Shown: in pieces, positions 117 through 14,009 of the stretch | Layout: each line of letters begins with the position of its first letter | How positions within the stretch are numbered: position 1 is the stretch's first letter | Virus record (IMG/VR): IMGVR_UViG_2660237951_000011 | Span: 1 to 14,009 of that record | Direction: 5' to 3' (one strand) | Length of the DNA stretch: 14,009 nt | From: a virus | Lineage: Duplodnaviria > Heunggongvirae > Uroviricota > Caudoviricetes | Notes under the pieces: generated by a model | Database searches by the model: none | What the model saw: the letters and a program-made list of their open reading frames with translations, nothing else | Told to the model about the DNA's origin: nothing | Position numbers and translations under genes: made by a program

Positions 117-2054
117 TCAGGCGGCTGCACCCGCCTTTTGATTTGCACATAATTCAGGAAGATTTGCTTCTACCAGCGCACGAGCGAACGGCGGCGGTAC
201 TGCGTTACCACAGCGCGCTACCTGCTTGTCTTTGGCGTAACGATTGCCGCGATAGTCCTGATCGATAACGTAGCCGTCAGGGAAGCCCTGCGCCTTATAA
301 AGCTCATGCGGTTGCAGCATGCGCATTCCGATATCGACGATCTGGTACTTAACCCCCTCGATCGTCACCAGCCATTCATCCTCGCTATCACCGCAGTAGG
401 TTTCGAGGAATGTCCGGACCTCGCCAACGTGCTGGCCACCAGCGGTAATCGTCGGCATAGGTGTATCCATGGTCTGACCGTCGCGGCAGGTTCCGCGCAG
501 CTTCACCAGGTGCGACGCAACTACCGCGTGGTGATCAACAGTAGTGACTGAGTGGGCAGGCTCATCCATACCAACACCCGGCCCCGTGTAATTCCCACCA
601 TAGTGCTTCGCCAGGAACGCGCTCACCGTTGCAAACTTATTACCACCAGCAGTGACCGTGCCGAGCGGGTTATTCAGTTGAAGAACACGCGGTTCTTGCC
701 CTGGGCGTTCGCCGTACCCCATCTGGATCAGTGTTGGAGTTACCAGCTGCGACTTACCGCCACCACCTGCAGTAATCGTCGCACTCGGTTCGTCAGCCCT
801 GTGCCCAACACTGGCTCCAAACTGGCGGGCGATGACCGGCGCAACCACGCACGCGCGGGACTGCTTGAGGATTGTATGAGCGGGTTTATCCAGCGGGCGC
901 GGCTTTGCCTGGTACTCACTGCCGCCATTGCCAGCCAGGAACGGTGTCAGGGCGGCCTCAACTACGCCAAGCGCATGCCCATTCCCGCCCGGGCGCGCCG
1001 ACGTACCAGCGGTGACAGTTGGTACCGGCTCGGTCACTGGCTGCCCGGTGGCCCCGGTGCGGAATTTAGTAAGATGCGGTACCGCCAGTGCGTAGCCATG
1101 CTTTTTAGTGATGGTCTGCAATGGCTCTAACAACGATTGCCCGCGGAAACAGTCATAACCTCCTTTCGTCGTGGTGTGGTTACACTTCACGATGAAAGGT
1201 GATGCGCTTTCGATAACAAAGCGCTGGATGCCGCGCGCGATACGTTTGAGCGTATTTTCCGCCAGCGGCTTTTTGCGGTCGAAGATGGACCGGGCCGGGA
1301 TATTCCAGTCAATGCACTCCGCCGCGGTACGCCATGGCGCCAGCTTGCCGCTTTGTACTTCCAGTGATTTTGGATCCCCATGAGTCGCTTCAGGCCAATG
1401 AATCTTGCGGCCGTCACAGCGCGTGACCATGAAGAAACGCTTTCTGATCGTCGGCGCGCCGTAGTCACATGCGCGCAGCTCCCGATAATCAACCTCATAA
1501 CCAAGCCCGGCGATCAGCTGTTGCGCCTGCTGGCCGTGCGGCTCAATGGCAAGGAATTCACAAACCTCAGCCAGCGCAGGGTGATTCGCCGCGATCCCCG
1601 TCGACAGCATGCCGACAAATGCCTCGAATGTTTCGCCAGCACGCTCAGGATCTGGGCGTAATTCTTCATCCAGCAGCGGGCCCCATGTCTTAAACTCTTC
1701 GACGTTCTCCAGCATCATGACGCGGGGACGTACTGCCAGCGCCCAGCGCAGGACAATCCACGCCAGCCCGCGAATCTCTTTCTTAACCGGCTTAGCGCCC
1801 TTCGCCTTGGAAAAGTGGCGGCAGTCAGGGCTAAACCAGGCCAGACCGACAGGTTTACCGCTGGTGGCTGCGCTTGGGTCAACGTCAAACACCGACTCGC
1901 AATAATGCAGCGTGTCAGGGTGATTCGTCTTATGCATCGCAATAGCGTTTTCGTCGTGGTTGATAGCGATATCCACGCTACGCCCGATCGCCAGTTCAAT
2001 GCCGGTACTCGCGCCGCCGCCACCAGCAAAGTTATCAACGATAATTTCACGCAT
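117..2054 (-). CDS. DNA (cytosine-5)-methyltransferase, 645 aa, with greatly expanded variable (target-recognition) region
   Basis: Start moved to internal ATG at 2054 (MREIIVDNF), which overlaps the upstream gene's stop. C5-MTase motifs read in order: I FAGGGGASTG; IV SPDCRHFSKAKG (P-C catalytic Cys); VI MMLENVEEF; VIII ACDYGAPTIRKRFFMV; IX MLQPHELYKAQGFPDGY; X GNAVPPPFARAL. About 370 aa lie between motifs VIII and IX. Confidence 0.85.
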   Translation of the reverse strand: MREIIVDNFAGGGGASTGIELAIGRSVDIAINHDENAIAMHKTNHPDTLHYCESVFDVDPSAATSGKPVGLAWFSPDCRHFSKAKGAKPVKKEIRGLAWIVLRWALAVRPRVMMLENVEEFKTWGPLLDEELRPDPERAGETFEAFVGMLSTGIAANHPALAEVCEFLAIEPHGQQAQQLIAGLGYEVDYRELRACDYGAPTIRKRFFMVTRCDGRKIHWPEATHGDPKSLEVQSGKLAPWRTAAECIDWNIPARSIFDRKKPLAENTLKRIARGIQRFVIESASPFIVKCNHTTTKGGYDCFRGQSLLEPLQTITKKHGYALAVPHLTKFRTGATGQPVTEPVPTVTAGTSARPGGNGHALGVVEAALTPFLAGNGGSEYQAKPRPLDKPAHTILKQSRACVVAPVIARQFGASVGHRADEPSATITAGGGGKSQLVTPTLIQMGYGERPGQEPRVLQLNNPLGTVTAGGNKFATVSAFLAKHYGGNYTGPGVGMDEPAHSVTTVDHHAVVASHLVKLRGTCRDGQTMDTPMPTITAGGQHVGEVRTFLETYCGDSEDEWLVTIEGVKYQIVDIGMRMLQPHELYKAQGFPDGYVIDQDYRGNRYAKDKQVARCGNAVPPPFARALVEANLPELCANQKAGAAA

Positions 2055-3381
2055 TGACGGCCCCCTGCATGCTGTTGAAGAGACCACCAGCGGTCGTGAT
2101 AATTTCACTCGTCGGCATACGTTCGAGCCACAGCTGGTTGATATTGGCTTTCAGCTTGTTCTGCTGCGAAACAGGTAGAGCGTCAGCCCCTTCAATCTGG
2201 TTAAACACCAGTCCAACCTCAAGAGGCCAAACGCGCGATTCGTTTAACGCCTTGTCCTTTGATTCCTGCGTCTCACGGACATGGGCGCGGATCCCCCGAA
2301 TATTTGACCATTTGGCTTTATCCAGGCTTTCCATGGTCGCGATGAATTCACTGTGGTTAATGCCGTATTCTTTCGCAGACTCAACGGCAACCGTGCGTAA
2401 CCGCTCTGACATGTCTTGTTTCACGTCATCGCTATCAAAGGGCAATGTTTCCAGCCATGCATTAACACCCACCAGGATGCTCTCGCTGATCAGCTTTTTC
2501 GCTCTGTCGATCGTCAGCGGTGAAACATTGGTAAATTCAGGGTTTTCCAGAGAGTCGGCAGCCCAGGTATGACCAAACTTTGACTCGCTGAAGGTGTACT
2601 CGTCTTTCTTGCCGAACGCCGCGACAACACAGGCCCAAGCCTCTACACCGCTGGTTTCCAGAATGGCTTTTTGGGTTAATGGCAGTTCTGCCTCTGATTT
2701 CTCCGGCACTACCTCAGCGTCCAGCTCCGGCGCCGCATCAGTTTGCGTTCTTCCCACGGCAAATTGGGCCAGCGACATCGCAGCACGGCCTTTGGCCTCC
2801 AGGTCGGTGCGGTTGATGTAACTGAAACGCTCACCCCGCCATGTTTTGTCGAAGACCACGATAGCGCCAGCAAAAAATGCGCTGGTGGGCTGCTGCTTTT
2901 CGTCTTTCGGCACGAACCATGTAGGAAGATCGAAACCAATTCGGCCACGGATGAATGTGACGTGATCTGCCTCTACCGGCCACCACGTTTCACTCGTCGC
3001 AGACTTAATGAGAAAAACGTACCGACCACCCTTTTCTCGCATGGCCATAGCGTGGTTAATGATGTGGGTCATTCCGGTAACGGCCTGCTTGTCGTGGTAC
3101 TGAGAGCGGCTGTAAGGCGGGTTGCCAAACCCGGCACCACCGAGTTCTGCCAGCCGCTCTGACCAATCCTGCATCAGGGCATTATCTTCAGCCGTGTACC
3201 ATGCTGGGCACTTCGCGTTGCTGTCGTCGGCAAAAAGGTCCAACACCAGAGGGCCGAACATCGCATTGATCCCCCAAAACAACAGATCCGGAGTGCGCCA
3301 TTGATCACCGACCTCTTTCAACTCGTGTGCTGGTTTTGAACGGAGTTCAGCTAGTGCACGGCAGTATTTATTTTCCATCAT
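2047..3381 (-). CDS. Phage Dam-family N6-adenine DNA methyltransferase with ~250-aa C-terminal extension of unknown function
   Basis: N-terminal region DQWRTPDLLFW...LDLFADDSNAKCPAWYT...GFGNPPYSRS carries the NPPY amino-methyltransferase motif in a phage-Dam-like context. Start ATG overlaps the upstream stop (ATGA at 3378-3381). Residues ~200-444 show no motif I recognise. Confidence 0.8.
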   Translation of the reverse strand: MMENKYCRALAELRSKPAHELKEVGDQWRTPDLLFWGINAMFGPLVLDLFADDSNAKCPAWYTAEDNALMQDWSERLAELGGAGFGNPPYSRSQYHDKQAVTGMTHIINHAMAMREKGGRYVFLIKSATSETWWPVEADHVTFIRGRIGFDLPTWFVPKDEKQQPTSAFFAGAIVVFDKTWRGERFSYINRTDLEAKGRAAMSLAQFAVGRTQTDAAPELDAEVVPEKSEAELPLTQKAILETSGVEAWACVVAAFGKKDEYTFSESKFGHTWAADSLENPEFTNVSPLTIDRAKKLISESILVGVNAWLETLPFDSDDVKQDMSERLRTVAVESAKEYGINHSEFIATMESLDKAKWSNIRGIRAHVRETQESKDKALNESRVWPLEVGLVFNQIEGADALPVSQQNKLKANINQLWLERMPTSEIITTAGGLFNSMQGAVNA

Positions 3382-4232
3382 CCTCTGAACCCCTCTGGAA
3401 TCTTGCTATCAACCGGACCGAACTTCATCGGGTCATGTTTCTTTTCACCCCAGCTGTCACGCGGTGGCCGCCCCTTCTTGTCCCAGCGGATCCCGCTTTG
3501 CAGATAACCTTCAAATTTTTTCGGACCGAAGAGCGTTTCAGGACGCATGTACTGGTACTGCACGTCATTGCCGTTCCAGTGCTCATGCTTAAGGTCGATC
3601 ACCAGCTGTAAGTCGCTAACGGTGTAACCTTCACGCAGACGAGCACGGATGTTTTCCAGAGAAGTTTTTGATTTTTGGTATCGTGAGCCACTAACCAGGT
3701 TCAGATGATTCAGAACCAGGATGGCGTTATCGGTGATCATCACTTCAGGGTCTGGTTGCGGCGCAACCGGACAAGAAGGTTTTTTAACTGATGGATCAGT
3801 AGTTGTATTTACTGACGGATCCCCCCCAGATTCTGACGGGTGAAAACCGCCTTTTTCATCGTTTTTTGATGCCTCAGATTTTGACGCGTCGGTTTTTGAG
3901 GCATCAGATTTTGATGCGTCAGAATCTGACAGGTGAGAAAAGGCAGCAGCCTGCAATTTAGCAACATTGAGCTGGTAAACGTTCGATGCATTTCGGTTGC
4001 CTTTACGGCGCTGCTGGCGGGTTAACCAACCATCTTTTTCCAGCTGAGATATGGCTGTACGAACCGTGCTCTCACCAGCACCAATCTGGCGCGCGATGGT
4101 AGCGATGGAAGGCCAGCTAACCCCTTCATCACTGCTGAAGTCTGCCAGACGCGCCATGATGGCAACGCTGGATAGCTTCATGCCAGAAGCGGCACAAGCA
4201 TCCCAAACGTAACCCGTTAATTTAGTGCTCAT
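3378..4232 (-). CDS. Phage replication initiator (lambda O-like): N-terminal winged-HTH, low-complexity SDASK-repeat linker, conserved phage replication C-terminal domain
   Basis: 284-aa ORF with RBS AAGGA 5 nt upstream of the ATG at 4232. N-terminus (SVAIMARLADFSSDEGVSWPSIATIARQIGAGESTVRTAISQLEKDGWL) is HTH-like. Central linker DSDASKSDASKTDASKSEASKND is encoded by tandem 15-bp DNA repeats. C-terminal region resembles phage replication-protein C-terminal domains. The family assignment is from memory, not a search. Confidence 0.65.
   Translation of the reverse strand: MSTKLTGYVWDACAASGMKLSSVAIMARLADFSSDEGVSWPSIATIARQIGAGESTVRTAISQLEKDGWLTRQQRRKGNRNASNVYQLNVAKLQAAAFSHLSDSDASKSDASKTDASKSEASKNDEKGGFHPSESGGDPSVNTTTDPSVKKPSCPVAPQPDPEVMITDNAILVLNHLNLVSGSRYQKSKTSLENIRARLREGYTVSDLQLVIDLKHEHWNGNDVQYQYMRPETLFGPKKFEGYLQSGIRWDKKGRPPRDSWGEKKHDPMKFGPVDSKIPEGFRG
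3864..3938. repeat. Four to five tandem 15-bp repeats (consensus TTTTGAnGCnTCAGA) inside the O-like gene; candidate origin iterons
   Basis: Direct reading gives ttttgatgcctcaga / ttttgacgcgtcggt / ttttgaggcatcaga / ttttgatgcgtcaga / atctgacaggtgaga. Each has a near-palindromic 10-bp core TGAnGCnTCA. Position mirrors lambda ori, which sits in the O linker. Confidence 0.5.
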
Positions 4233-5459: not shown

Positions 5460-6086
5460 ATGGAAACGGTTGGTCAGCGCATTAAAGCCCTACGTAGGGT
5501 TACAAGAACCTCTCAAAAAGAACTGGGTAAGTTCTGCGGGGTTAGTGACGTAGCGGTGGGTTATTGGGAAAAGGATGTGAATATCCCAAACGGTGAATCG
5601 CTGGTTAAGCTGGCGAAATTCTTTAACACATCAATAGATTACATTCTTTACGGCACTGAATTTGAAGGCACCCTCATAACTAAAATGAGGCGTGTCCCGG
5701 TGATTTCATGGGTTCAAGCTGGGCAGTTCACGGAATGTAAAGCCGCTGATTTGTTCAGTGATGTCGATAAATGGGTTGAAACATCACTTCGCATTGGGGA
5801 TAACTCGTTCGCTTTAGAGGTCAAAGGGGATTCAATGACCAATCCAAATGGCCTCCCAACAATCCCTGAAGGGGCAACCGTTATTGTTGATCCAGATGCC
5901 GAACCCCTTCATGGCAAGATTGTGGTTGCGCGTCTTGATGGCACTAATGAAGCGACTGTTAAAAAACTTGTCATTGATGGCCCACAAAAATTTTTAGTGC
6001 CACTAAATCCTCGCTACCCCAACATCCCGATCAATGGTAACTGCCTCATTATTGGCGTTGTTAAAGGCGTTCAGTACGAACTCTAA
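5460..6086 (+). CDS. cI: CI-type prophage repressor, N-terminal HTH plus C-terminal S24 (LexA-like) autocleaving peptidase domain
   Basis: N-terminal HTH (TSQKELGKFCGVSDVAVGYWE). Ala-Gly cleavage site in VQAGQF. Ser nucleophile in GDSM and the Lys of the dyad in ATVKKL. Divergent from cro across an operator region. Confidence 0.9.
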   Translation: METVGQRIKALRRVTRTSQKELGKFCGVSDVAVGYWEKDVNIPNGESLVKLAKFFNTSIDYILYGTEFEGTLITKMRRVPVISWVQAGQFTECKAADLFSDVDKWVETSLRIGDNSFALEVKGDSMTNPNGLPTIPEGATVIVDPDAEPLHGKIVVARLDGTNEATVKKLVIDGPQKFLVPLNPRYPNIPINGNCLIIGVVKGVQYEL

Positions 6087-7141: not shown

Positions 7142-7969
7142 ATGTCTCAGTTAGACAGCGGCACCTTCAAGCAGGTCAAAGACCTGGTCCTTTCCGGTTA
7201 TCACCTGAATGATATTCATGGCCTGGCTTGCCCGACCGCATTACTGCCAGAGGGTACTGGCGTTGAAAGCCTTGAGCGCTTTTCTCTGGAACGTTTCCGC
7301 TTTCGTGGCGCAATGACCACAACCAGTATTGACGACTTCGCACGTTATTCTAAAGGTTATGCCAGCGCCAGCGAGCCAGCTCGTTGCTTCATTGACGCTG
7401 ACAACATGACCGCCCGTTCAGTGTTCAACATCGGCACCCTGGATAACCCCGGTCACGCCGATAACGTTGCTTCAATCACTCTGAAGAAAACCGCCCCGTT
7501 TCGCGCGCTACTACAGATCGATGGTCAGCGTCTGAAACAAAAGCAAATCGCTGAATGGCTGGAAGACTGGAGTGATTACCTGCTGGCGTTTGACGCTGAT
7601 GGTAAGACGATGGAGATTTCTCAGGCGGCTCAGGCCGTGCGTCGTATCACTATCCAACAAGCAACCCAGCAGGATCATGAAACTGGTGATTTCGCTGGTA
7701 AAAAATCACTCATGCAAAGCGTCGAAGCAAGCAGCAAAGACGTAATGCCGGTAGCGTTCGAATTCAAATGTGTGCCGTATGAAGGTCTGGGCGAACGCCG
7801 CTTTAGCTTGCGTAACAGCCTGCTGACCAGCGATGAACCCTGCTTTGTTCTGCGCATCGTCCAACTTGAAGCCCAGGAAGAAGCAATCGCCAACGAATTC
7901 CGCGATTTACTGATCAGCAAGTTCGACGGTGAATCAGTGGAAACTTTCATCGGTAACTTTAAAGCCTAA
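7142..7969 (+). CDS. Hypothetical protein (275 aa); YfdQ/DUF2303-like by position
   Basis: AGGA 7 nt upstream of ATG. No recognisable catalytic motif. Lies immediately upstream of the YfdR-like gene, as in the yfdP-yfdQ-yfdR order I recall for the CPS-53/KplE1 prophage of E. coli K-12. Confidence 0.6.
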   Translation: MSQLDSGTFKQVKDLVLSGYHLNDIHGLACPTALLPEGTGVESLERFSLERFRFRGAMTTTSIDDFARYSKGYASASEPARCFIDADNMTARSVFNIGTLDNPGHADNVASITLKKTAPFRALLQIDGQRLKQKQIAEWLEDWSDYLLAFDADGKTMEISQAAQAVRRITIQQATQQDHETGDFAGKKSLMQSVEASSKDVMPVAFEFKCVPYEGLGERRFSLRNSLLTSDEPCFVLRIVQLEAQEEAIANEFRDLLISKFDGESVETFIGNFKA

Positions 7970-8008: not shown

Positions 8009-8097
8009 GAAGCGTAATTCCATTAATTATCGCCATCCGGCGAGGGATTCGTGCAACCAAAATCTGCGCGGTGCAGCGCGCCAATATGGAGAAAACC

Positions 8098-8637
8098 ATG
8101 AGCTACATTCAGACATTATCCGGCAAACACTTTAATTACCTCGATATCCAACAGGACGATATCGTCATCGAGGATATTGCTACTGCGCTGTCTCATATCT
8201 GCCGTTTTGCTGGGCATCTTCCTGAGTTTTACAGCGTCGGCCAGCATAGCGTTTTAACCAGCCATCTCGTTCCGCAGGAGTTTGCCTTAGAAGCACTGCT
8301 TCATGATGCCGCCGAAGCCTACCTGCAAGATATTCCCTCACCGCTTAAGCGCCTGTTACCGGATTACCAGGTGATCGAAGCTCGCGTAGACGCTGCTATT
8401 CGCCAGAAATTTGGCCTACCGACGGAGCAACACCCAACAGTGAAATATGCCGATCTGGTGATGCTCGCCAGCGAACGCCGCGATTTTGAGATTGACGAAG
8501 GTTCCGTGTGGCCATGCCTCGATGGCGTTGTCCCGACGGACCTATTCATCATCAATCCAGTTCGTCCAGGCCAGTCATACGGCATGTTCATAAATCGCTT
8601 TAATGAGTTGATGGAGCAGCGTCAATGCGCCGCATGA
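8098..8637 (+). CDS. yfdR: HD-domain phosphohydrolase, YfdR-like 5'-deoxynucleotidase
   Basis: HD motif visible: H-x(n)-HD in LSHICRFAGH...YSVGQHSVLTS...EALLHDAAEAYLQDIP. Strong end-to-end resemblance to my recollection of E. coli YfdR. Start at 8098 (GGAG 6 nt upstream), not the track start at 8071. Confidence 0.7.
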   Translation: MSYIQTLSGKHFNYLDIQQDDIVIEDIATALSHICRFAGHLPEFYSVGQHSVLTSHLVPQEFALEALLHDAAEAYLQDIPSPLKRLLPDYQVIEARVDAAIRQKFGLPTEQHPTVKYADLVMLASERRDFEIDEGSVWPCLDGVVPTDLFIINPVRPGQSYGMFINRFNELMEQRQCAA

Positions 8638-11992: not shown

Positions 11993-12565
11993 ATGAACGA
12001 CTTAATGATTGACCTCGAATCAATGGGGAAAAAGCCAAACGCGCCGATCGTCTCAGTTGGTGCTGTCTTTTTTAACCCTCAAACAGGTGAACTTGGCCAA
12101 GAATTCTATACAGCCGTCTCGCTTGAAAGCTCAATGGATCAAGGCGCGGTACCGGATGGAGATACGATTCTTTGGTGGCTAAAACAAAGCCCTGAAGCGC
12201 GCTCAGCTATCTGCGTTGATGATGCGATGCCTATCACTGATGCACTGTCGGAACTTAGCCATTTCATTCACCGGCATGCATATAATCTCAAATACATGAA
12301 GGTCTGGGGTAACGGGGCCACCTTTGACAATGTGATTTTGCGCGGAGCTTACGAACGCGCCGGACGCATTTGCCCGTGGGAATTTTGGAACGATCATGAT
12401 GTACGAACGATTGTTACCCTCGGTCGCAGTGTTGGTTTCGATCCGAAGCGTGACATGCCTTTCATTGGCGATGTTCACAACGCCCTGGCTGATGCGCGCC
12501 ATCAGGCAAAATATGTGTCAGCAATTTGGCAGAAAATTATCCCTGCCACCAGCACCAACGAGTAA
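11993..12565 (+). CDS. DnaQ-like (DEDDh) 3'-5' exonuclease
   Basis: N-terminal MIDLESMG (Asp-x-Glu) and C-terminal HNALADARH (His/Asp) match the acidic-residue pattern of DEDDh exonucleases. Lies directly before xis-int. Confidence 0.7.
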   Translation: MNDLMIDLESMGKKPNAPIVSVGAVFFNPQTGELGQEFYTAVSLESSMDQGAVPDGDTILWWLKQSPEARSAICVDDAMPITDALSELSHFIHRHAYNLKYMKVWGNGATFDNVILRGAYERAGRICPWEFWNDHDVRTIVTLGRSVGFDPKRDMPFIGDVHNALADARHQAKYVSAIWQKIIPATSTNE

Positions 12566-12609: not shown

Positions 12610-12819
12610 ATGGCAAAGCTAATGAAAGCGAGTCTCTGGAGTAAACGCGAATTTACCAAAGACTCCATTCCTGACAACCGTACAATAAAACGTTGGGTCG
12701 AAAACGGATTACTCATGGGAAGGATTGTAGATGGTTCAGTTTTTGTCTATGAAACCGAAAAGTGGGGAGTTGACTCAATTGTTAATCAGGCGGTACGTCA
12801 GTTAATAATTGAGGGTTGA
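12610..12819 (+). CDS. xis: Excisionase-like recombination directionality factor (69 aa)
   Basis: Start moved to ATG at 12610 (GGAGAAGGAAA RBS). Pattern W-x(n)-P-x(n)-RWVENGLL...G...V.E parallels lambda Xis. Stop lies 2 nt before the integrase ATG. Confidence 0.6.
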   Translation: MAKLMKASLWSKREFTKDSIPDNRTIKRWVENGLLMGRIVDGSVFVYETEKWGVDSIVNQAVRQLIIEG

Positions 12820-12821
12820 CC

Positions 12822-14009
12822 ATGGCAGCAAGGCCACGAAAAAAAGAATACCGCCACCTTCCTGATTATCTTTTTTTTGATAAAGATCGTGGCGTGTATA
12901 AGTTCACGCTTATAACTGGGAAAAAGAAAACTCTAGGTTCGGATCGAGTAATGGCTATCGCCATCGCCCGAGAATATAACCTGAGGATGCGCCCTGAAAA
13001 TACACCATCGATAGATTCATTAATTCGGGAATCGGGAGGGCTGAATGGTGAAGCCCACCCGTTTTCTGAACATGTTGATCGCATTATGGAGAGAGCTATC
13101 AAAGATGAGCAACCGTCTAAAAGCACACTTGACGATTGGAATAATGATGCCATCAGGGTTAAAGAATTTTTTAATAACATACCCGCATGCGACATTGAGC
13201 TTGAGCACGTAAATGCCTACATACGAAATTACCATTCTGAATCGTCGGCCAATGTTCAGAACCGAAAAGTTAGCTTCCTGAAAAAGCTATTCTCTTATGC
13301 TGTTGATGAATCGCTAATGATGGATAACCCTGCAACACGGAAAAAAATGCGGCGTGTCGATAAAAAGGTCCGCCGGCGACTTACTTTGGAGCAGTTCCTG
13401 GCCATACATGCAGCTGCTGAACCCTGGCTGAAGACAGCAATGGACCTTGCATTACAAACTACTCAAGCACGCCTGGAAGTATCCCGGATCCGGTACTCGA
13501 TCAAGGAACCTCAAGAAGGAGTTTGCGGCTGTGTATGGTTCGATCAGGAAGAGGCTGGCATATTCGGAACGCTTTACATTCATCGGCAAAAAGTGCAACA
13601 CAAAGAGGCCTCTCACGTTGCAATTCCGATCGGCAGGGCCCTGAAAGAGATCATCGACAATAGCAGAGACAATGTGGCCAGTCCTTATGTTGTTCACCGG
13701 CTTTTGGAAAAGAGAAGCAATCCGATAAGCAAGGAAGTTAACCACCCAACACAGGTGGCCCCTGATTATTTGAGCAGAGCATTTTCAGAGCTGCGGGACC
13801 GGATAGGTATAGCGGCAGAATTACCTATCAAAGAAAGGCCAACTTTCCACGAGATTAGAGCGCTGGCGGCTCATATTTTCGAAAGACAAGGTATCGATCC
13901 GCAGGCAAGGATGGCCCATAGTGATGCAAAATCGACAAAAATTTATACCCAGAACCATGTTGAATGGGTAGAAGTTCCTCATGCTGAAATTGTCTTTAAA
14001 GCCGGGTGA
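12822..14009 (+). CDS. int: Lambda-family tyrosine integrase
   Basis: Alignable by eye to lambda Int: N-terminal arm-binding region (RKKEYRHLPDYLFFDKDRGVYKF vs lambda RRDLPPNLYIRNNGYYCY), and catalytic-region R...H-x-x-R...Y (HEIRALAAH, KIYTQNH). ATG at 12822 with GAGGG RBS; the track uses TTG at 12816. Stop is the last codon of the window. Confidence 0.9.
   Translation: MAARPRKKEYRHLPDYLFFDKDRGVYKFTLITGKKKTLGSDRVMAIAIAREYNLRMRPENTPSIDSLIRESGGLNGEAHPFSEHVDRIMERAIKDEQPSKSTLDDWNNDAIRVKEFFNNIPACDIELEHVNAYIRNYHSESSANVQNRKVSFLKKLFSYAVDESLMMDNPATRKKMRRVDKKVRRRLTLEQFLAIHAAAEPWLKTAMDLALQTTQARLEVSRIRYSIKEPQEGVCGCVWFDQEEAGIFGTLYIHRQKVQHKEASHVAIPIGRALKEIIDNSRDNVASPYVVHRLLEKRSNPISKEVNHPTQVAPDYLSRAFSELRDRIGIAAELPIKERPTFHEIRALAAHIFERQGIDPQARMAHSDAKSTKIYTQNHVEWVEVPHAEIVFKAG

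Follow-up and report, generated by a model that had tools for sequence, protein, structure and literature searches.

Does a single phage cytosine methyltransferase carry a whole set of exchangeable recognition modules on one catalytic core? This question is raised by the window analysed here, the first 14,009 nucleotides of the IMG/VR virus record IMGVR_UViG_2660237951_000011 (Caudoviricetes), which represents the early region of a lambdoid Escherichia coli prophage. On its minus strand, from an ATG at 2054 to a stop at 117-119, lies a C5 DNA methyltransferase gene (RefSeq label "DNA cytosine methyltransferase"), hereafter the query. An earlier reading made from the letters alone, here called the sequence-only reading, had singled out positions 405-1142, which correspond to residues ~305-550 of the enzyme. 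It proposed that this part of the protein, between motifs VIII and IX, is built from about seven repeated modules that recognise several targets and so give broad protection against restriction.

Seven contiguous repeats between motifs VIII and IX

The seven proposed modules are recovered in full. An iterated hidden Markov model (HMM) of the module finds exactly seven contiguous units at residues 302-565, each scoring 21-50 bits and all situated between motifs VIII and IX. The repeat unit exceeds the seven-residue motif by which it had been recognised, as whole units of 32-48 amino acids align over about 32 columns, with the consensus GSRGQSLDEPLPTVTAKGRHALVAAFLVKYYGG. The conserved Thr or Ser of the core had been placed exactly at residues 314, 346, 394, 426, 466 and 535, while the sixth copy lies at 502 and not at 503; the cores are thus spaced by 32, 48, 32, 40, 36 and 33 residues. 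The strict form P..[TS][IV]T is present in six of the seven modules, the copy at residue 394 reading PAHTIL. Shuffled versions of the region contain 0.066 strict cores on average, and none of 20,000 shuffles reached six. Four copies of T(I/V)TAGG had been claimed, a number that we correct to three (modules 4, 5 and 7), since module 2 carries TVTAGT. The seven modules are confirmed as true repeats.

At the nucleotide level, the sole trace of the repeat is a set of short imperfect repeats of 18-19 nt (436-454, 643-661, 763-781 and 1005-1022; 74-89% identical), which encode T-(I/V)-T-A-G in modules 7, 5, 4 and 2. Because likeness between the modules at the DNA level is limited to these TITAGG-coding stretches, the duplication is old rather than recent. 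The short repeats could provide microhomology for unequal crossover. A plus-strand open reading frame (ORF) at 552-1130 is antisense to the methylase gene and was dismissed as spurious.

The array is inserted into an enzyme whose identity as a C5-methyltransferase, also part of the sequence-only reading, is well supported by Pfam family PF00145 (74.5 bits, cutoff 22) and by structural matches to known C5 enzymes. Aligned to the enzyme of prophage CP-933R (3g7u) and to MET1, motifs I (FAGGGG), IV (FSPDCRHFS), VI (ENV, in LENVEEF), VIII (TIRKRFFMV), IX (QGFPD) and X (GNAVPPP) follow one another in the canonical order, with FFMV at residues 207-210 and QGFPD at residues 589-593, counted from the ATG. 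The TIGR00675 score of 54 bits falls below the cutoff of 100.65 because the long insert splits the match. An AlphaFold model computed with only 38 close homologues had a mean predicted local distance difference test (pLDDT) score of 36.5. With an input alignment of 106 diverse family members, the catalytic core exceeds a pLDDT of 90, and Foldseek returns C5-methyltransferases only, with a probability of 1.00 to DNMT1, MET1, 3g7u, HhaI and HaeIII. The predicted model confirms the C5-methyltransferase fold of the enzyme.

Motif IV deviates from the canonical form. It reads S-P-D-C (residues 76-78, window 1821-1829), and in the alignment to 3g7u, Asp77 takes the place of the Pro that precedes the Cys, so that the canonical Pro-Cys dipeptide is absent from the query. 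Across the 106 aligned family members, P76 and C78 are invariant and D77 is at least 90% conserved, and S-P-D-C-[KRT]-H-F-S is visible in most of the best 150 family members.

The same motif is also a site of intein insertion. Eight family representatives (P0131, P0189, P0198, P0209, P0215, P0221, P0255 and P0270), identified among Pfam-explained family members of more than 880 aa, carry a Hint domain, in most cases with a LAGLIDADG homing endonuclease. The insertion point falls precisely after SPD (SPA in one) and before the catalytic Cys, as in ...FSPD/CFPAGT...VVHN/CKHFS, where slashes mark the junctions. As the intein precedes the catalytic Cys, the methylase nucleophile is the +1 residue of the intein.

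Gain, loss and diversity of modules across the family

The closest relatives of the query show how the array changes, and they bear out the proposed modular nature of the variable region: whole modules are gained and lost among proteins that are at least 78% identical. In the 120 best homologues above this identity (605-695 aa), protein length tracks module number, which ranges from 6 to 9. Each module was typed by comparison with the seven of the query. The resulting architectures comprise 1234567 (the query), 123467, 124567, 123456a7, 123456d, 123456fd and 123456a7g. Single-linkage clustering of modules collapsed to one cluster and was uninformative; typing and average linkage were used instead.

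Compared with the proteins of Citrobacter phage phiNP and Klebsiella phage 5 LV-2017, insertions and deletions amount to exactly one period and are in register. At the deletion junctions, the leading half of module n continues directly into the trailing half of module n+1 (TITKTHGYAV/VTPFIAGNGG and GGGGKSQLVT/TFLAKHFGG). In the query itself, the usual terminal module of the family (…DEPLGTVTTNDRFGLVTV) lacks its first half, and comparison with phiNP reveals that module 7 of the query is fused to the tail (WLVTI) of that terminal module. The repertoire evolves by in-register intermodule recombination, in which one period is deleted, added or chimerised per event.

Judging from the homologues, natural whole-module gain, loss and chimera formation take place in intact ORFs that are under selection. 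Non-synonymous divergence per module (pN) is 0.04-0.28 against a saturated synonymous divergence (pS) of 0.5-0.9; for module 3, pN is 0.04-0.13, again with saturated pS. The ratio dN/dS is ~0.06-0.11 for the array and 0.07-0.13 for the catalytic domain. Purifying selection on the modules is as strong as on the catalytic domain, and the modules are not decaying. Furthermore, no two modules are more than 60% identical within any of 151 proteins, and 12 proteins contain a pair of the same module type where random assortment predicts 46 +/- 4, which makes such pairs about four-fold rarer than expected.

An exhaustive search of 1.84 billion representatives returned 8,652 proteins with E<=1e-3; at the stricter E<=1e-30 there were 2,587, a count of clusters at 50% identity from Proteobacteria and Bacillota. 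The best 150 family members are 43-75% identical to the query and span 403-1,113 aa. The module HMM finds 1-12 modules per family member, most often 6-8, with a period of 32-40 aa and a modal module length of 32-34 aa. The distance from motif VIII to motif IX follows ~152 + 33.5 x n residues, where n is the number of modules (r=0.86). The intercept of ~152 aa corresponds to the fixed N-terminal variable part (residues 213-301) together with the short flanks beyond that part.

Within 1,041 modules from 151 proteins, Pro (P10) is conserved in 98% and Thr (T13) in 95%. The core is followed by a conserved strand, A-L-V-x-A-x-L, which is hydrophobic over columns 21-27, and the module boundaries are Gly-rich. 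Information is lowest in columns 5, 12, 17, 19, 20 and 30 (0.85-1.14 bits). Average linkage yields 272 module types at a core identity of at least 50%, and 108 of these types recur in at least three modules.

In a collection that holds one genome per species, relatives were placed at 544 or more matched sites. Hosts among the matches listed include Enterobacterales, Aeromonas, Shewanella, Cupriavidus, Sphingomonads, Desulfovibrionaceae and many Bacillota (Paenibacillus, Listeria, Oscillospiraceae). All 77 methylase loci examined carry 4-10 modules, and the array is present in 74 phage records, including Pseudomonas F116, Myxococcus Mx4, Pectobacterium ZF40 and a Bacillus phi105-type phage. The commonest recognisable neighbours of the family genes are other DNA methylases and phage genes. 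Restriction endonuclease families are missing from the 25 commonest of 53 neighbour families (150 neighbours, 77 loci), save for a single ResIII (Type III res-subunit helicase domain). The setting of an orphan phage methylase, which an anti-restriction role needs, therefore holds in view of the prophage early region, the phage records and the neighbour families.

The phi105-type phage (GenBank KY197768; locus L008, 1691-3067) encodes a 458-aa, three-module family member that is unannotated in that record. This protein is 50% identical to the query, and query residues 2-22 are identical in it, a likeness that implies gene exchange between phages of Gram-positive and Gram-negative hosts. The literature searched contained no characterised member of the family, and cluster look-ups gave no informative names. 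The family is apparently an undescribed and very large group of orphan phage and prophage methyltransferases.

What the modules may do

We favour, with a probability of roughly 0.55, the reading that the seven modules are alternative mini recognition domains on one catalytic core, which give the enzyme several targets and the phage DNA broad protection. The architecture consists of the catalytic core, a fixed segment of ~90 aa and then the seven contiguous modules with their Gly-rich boundaries, each module comprising a near-invariant Pro and Thr (P-x-x-T-h-T), variable loops on either side and a hydrophobic strand. The modules would take turns at the catalytic cleft, each steering methylation to a short target of its own, and one enzyme would thereby methylate several sequences. 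Expressed from the early operon during lytic growth, presumably alongside the neighbouring Dam-type methylase, the enzyme would pre-methylate progeny DNA and so shield it against several C5-sensitive restriction systems that later hosts may carry. A stronger form, with 4-12 autonomous mini recognition domains of ~33 aa per core, each with its own target and reshuffled by recombination, would make this a 'hyper-multispecific' family; we put it forward tentatively, at slightly less than even odds.

Of the original claim of multi-target methylation and broad anti-restriction, the modularity, the orphan phage setting and a layout like that of the multispecific SPR-type enzymes of Bacillus phages stand, while homology to known target-recognition domains (TRDs), which the module HMM does not detect, is at best tentative. 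Several observations weigh against the favoured reading. When scored with the module HMM, the TRDs of SPR, rho11s and H2, as well as residues 230-292 of HhaI, rank no higher than shuffles, and a search of the module profile against Protein Data Bank sequences gave no relevant match. Smith-Waterman comparisons of array against array are marginal in four of six cases (z 2.8-3.5; 13-33 of 2,000 shuffles; p ~0.01) and not significant in the other two (phi105-like against rho11s and H2). If the array had already diverged in an ancestor, inheritance alone would likewise produce the avoidance of same-type modules. Methylation data for any family member were not found in the literature searched, and we know of no experimental precedent for seven or more autonomous specificities per enzyme. 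Finally, in the AlphaFold model the pLDDT stays at 27-59 from module 1 to midway through module 6. Residues 511-579, which hold the module 6 strand, module 7 and the strands before motif IX, mostly reach 75-97 (75-87 over 511-570), and module 7 is the only whole module modelled with confidence. A confident model that is limited to module 7 and the module 6 strand, beside motif IX, also fits a TRD formed by the last module only.

This last point also speaks for the strongest rival, a monospecific enzyme in which only module 7 recognises DNA and the upstream modules are structural repeats, such as strands of a common beta-sheet, which build one large non-modular domain as a scaffold or a general DNA-binding extension. 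Within the confident stretch, the strands of modules 6 and 7 and those that precede motif IX follow one another as beta-strands in the prediction, and every module has one conserved hydrophobic strand. Natural deletions keep strictly to the phase of the repeat, which periodic packing would require, and even the smallest family members keep 2-4 modules. Nevertheless, we consider a monospecific enzyme unlikely. The core Pro and Thr are 95-98% conserved at all array positions and not at the last alone, all modules are under purifying selection equal to that on the catalytic core, and the Gly-rich boundaries suggest hinges. Moreover, the conserved terminal module of the family is deleted in the query with the ORF kept, and therefore another module can occupy the site beside motif IX.

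Relaxed specificity is a more doubtful alternative. Here, the whole array would raise DNA affinity or processivity and very short or degenerate contexts would be methylated, which would give broad protection with no separate target for each module, an outcome like that of M.EcoGII. The hundreds of distinct conserved module types (272) fit sequence discrimination better, as does the information profile, which is lowest beside the P-x-x-T core instead of being evenly spread. On the other hand, orphan phage and prophage methylases of degenerate specificity are an established anti-restriction strategy (PMC12707154), the family is often clustered with other methylases, and the array has a slightly basic character (pI 8.4) and a high content of Gly, Pro and Thr (G+P 20.8%). 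To other readings, for example an array that reads one long composite site, we leave only a small remainder. That the gene is inactive or decaying, its repeats relics and its Asp-Cys motif IV non-functional, is highly improbable: against the Asp in place of the canonical Pro and the TIGR00675 score below cutoff stand an intact ORF that is 100% identical in three and at least 98% identical in 12 complete E. coli genomes and in three phages, a 90%-identity cluster of 1,680 sequences, the conservation of SPDC in thousands of family members, inteins directly before the Cys in eight representatives, a placement typical of functionally essential sites, and a dN/dS of ~0.1.

If the modules are working recognition domains, the strategy would be widespread in phages of both Gram-negative and Gram-positive bacteria, a single enzyme having as many as twelve specificities, and would help to explain how temperate phages cross restriction barriers. 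It would also predict heavy C5-methylcytosine on induced phage DNA, invisible to PacBio methylomes, and would offer a compact, naturally swappable unit of ~33 residues for engineering methylation specificity. Should the form with 4-12 autonomous domains hold, these enzymes would be evolvable master keys against C5-sensitive restriction systems, and their modules the smallest known self-contained DNA-sequence readers for the C5 enzyme class. The natural deletion and insertion variants make the multispecificity hypothesis directly testable.

Prophage setting and comparison with known enzymes

The methyltransferase gene is located between the replication and antitermination genes of the prophage early region, which also contains a CII-like gene (other features in Table 1). 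Its upstream neighbour encodes a Dam-type methylase with an uncharacterised C-terminal extension of ~240 aa, and the end of this neighbour, including its stop, overlaps the C5 start ATG by 8 nt. The gene pair is also found in phages phiNP and Flotzy, and the two enzymes probably form one early-operon methylation cassette. A homologue of the Dam-type methylase is labelled 'phosphoadenosine phosphosulfate reductase' in one phage record, and PHROG 33262 bears the same label, which is probably wrong. A third gene, annotated 'DNA-methyltransferase', lies outside the window, 3' of the antiterminator Q gene of the same prophage in NZ_CM149564 (L001, 11012-12064), so that the prophage carries at least three methylase genes. 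The plus strand of the window between 7142 and 12565 encodes YfdQ/DUF2303 (7142-7969), an HD-domain YfbR-like protein (8071-8637) and an Rv2179c-like 3'-5' exoribonuclease (11993-12565).

Among 5,426 complete E. coli genomes, 12 hold an identical or near-identical copy (at least 98%) of the C5 gene, and a 13th matches it in part. Such copies are also present in Escherichia phages Phi06_2987, Flotzy and Eeyore.

Table 1. Features of the window, with positions, strand and supporting evidence.
Feature	Position	Strand	Evidence
Complete C5 DNA methyltransferase gene, 645 aa + stop	117..2054	minus	RefSeq CDS WP_001515601.1, same span; Pfam PF00145, 1.3e-20
Catalytic domain, N-terminal part, residues 1-212, motifs I-VIII	1419..2054	minus	AlphaFold pLDDT mostly >90, dip to 57 near residues 81-90
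Presumed catalytic Cys78 codon	1821..1823	minus	Alignment to 3g7u; 106-member family alignment
Fixed, non-repeated start of variable region, residues 213-301, WPEATH...PFIVKCNHT	1152..1418	minus	Conserved across family; pLDDT 75-97 except last residues
Module 1, residues 302-333, CFRGQSLLEPLQTITKKHGYALAVPHLTKFRT	1056..1151	minus	HMM 38.4 bits
Module 2, residues 334-381, 9-aa loop insertion following TVTAGT	912..1055	minus	HMM 24.6 bits
Module 3, residues 382-413, degenerate core PAHTIL; missing in '124567' homologues	816..911	minus	HMM 21.4 bits
Module 4, residues 414-453, core PSATITAGGGG	696..815	minus	HMM 42.0 bits
Module 5, residues 454-489, core PLGTVTAGGN; missing in '123467' homologues	588..695	minus	HMM 43.3 bits
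Module 6, residues 490-522, core PAHSVTTVDHH	489..587	minus	HMM 50.0 bits
Module 7, residues 523-565, core PMPTITAGGQH	360..488	minus	HMM 36.3 bits
C-terminal part, residues 566-645 + stop; motif IX MRMLQPHELYKAQGFPD, motif X CGNAVPPP	117..359	minus	pLDDT 89-98
Phage Dam-type N6-adenine methyltransferase, 444 aa, upstream neighbour of C5 gene	2047..3381	minus	PF05869 1.7e-42; TIGR01712 199.9 bits
Replication gene	3378-4232		
cI-type S24 repressor	5460-6086		
Integrase	12816-14009		

Among characterised systems, the monospecific C5 enzymes M.HhaI, M.HaeIII and the CP-933R enzyme share the fold of the query and its motifs I, VI, VIII, IX and X. They carry one TRD, in which, as in the modules, a conserved Thr-hydrophobic dipeptide is followed by a Gly-rich loop; I-T250-L-S-A-Y-G-G-G of HhaI resembles T-I-T-A-G-G-G-G of module 4. 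In contrast to the seven modules of the query, however, there is a single recognition unit, and the spacing from the GQ loop to the Thr is 13 residues in HhaI versus 8 in the module consensus.

In lysogens M.EcoGII is silent, and its action is believed to fall on phage DNA once the prophage is induced (PMC12707154). Like the query, it is an orphan prophage-encoded methylase, and the query is presumed to behave likewise. M.EcoGII differs in being an N6-adenine enzyme of another fold class, whose breadth comes from lacking specificity and not from arrayed modules.

To our knowledge, the only cytosine methylases that combine tandem recognition domains in one protein come from a small number of Bacillus phages. 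These SPR-type enzymes (M.SPRI, M.Phi3TI, M.Rho11sI and M.H2I), encoded by temperate phages, are, like the query, orphan phage enzymes with one catalytic core. In both, the variable region begins with a fixed N-terminal part and continues as a linker-less series of contiguous ~30-50-aa units, each bearing a T-(I/L/V) core. In the M.SPRI, M.Rho11sI and M.H2I sequences, taken from GenBank records, the variable regions hold 3-4 units with T-(I/L/V)-(T/S/N) cores 30-48 aa apart. The proposed role is likewise shared, namely protection against several restriction systems. The tandem TRDs of Bacillus phages have been credited with such a multi-target protection strategy (PMC12707154, PMC8936443), and a 2025 restriction-modification review cites tandem recognition domains for Bacillus phages only (PMC12707154).

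The two groups nevertheless differ in lineage, as the query matches SPR in short local segments only. The best local BLASTP match to M.SPRI pairs module 6 with the last SPR unit (354-376) at 43% identity over 23 aa (pairwise E 0.009), the matched stretches being EPAHSVTTVDHHAVVA and EPAFTVNTIDRHGVAV. Motif IV reads SPDC in the query and SPCQ in SPR, and the modules of the query are shorter and more numerous, with 7 (up to 12 in the family) compared to 3-4 cores in SPR, rho11s and H2. Furthermore, the family spans Proteobacteria and Bacillota, unlike the Bacillus-phage enzymes. The three-module phi105-type member aligns colinearly with M.SPRI (E 3e-8) with its three cores in register, an alignment that is anchored by the catalytic motifs. 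On these comparisons, the resemblance to SPR-type enzymes appears to be one of architecture, possibly reflecting ancient homology, and not one of family membership.

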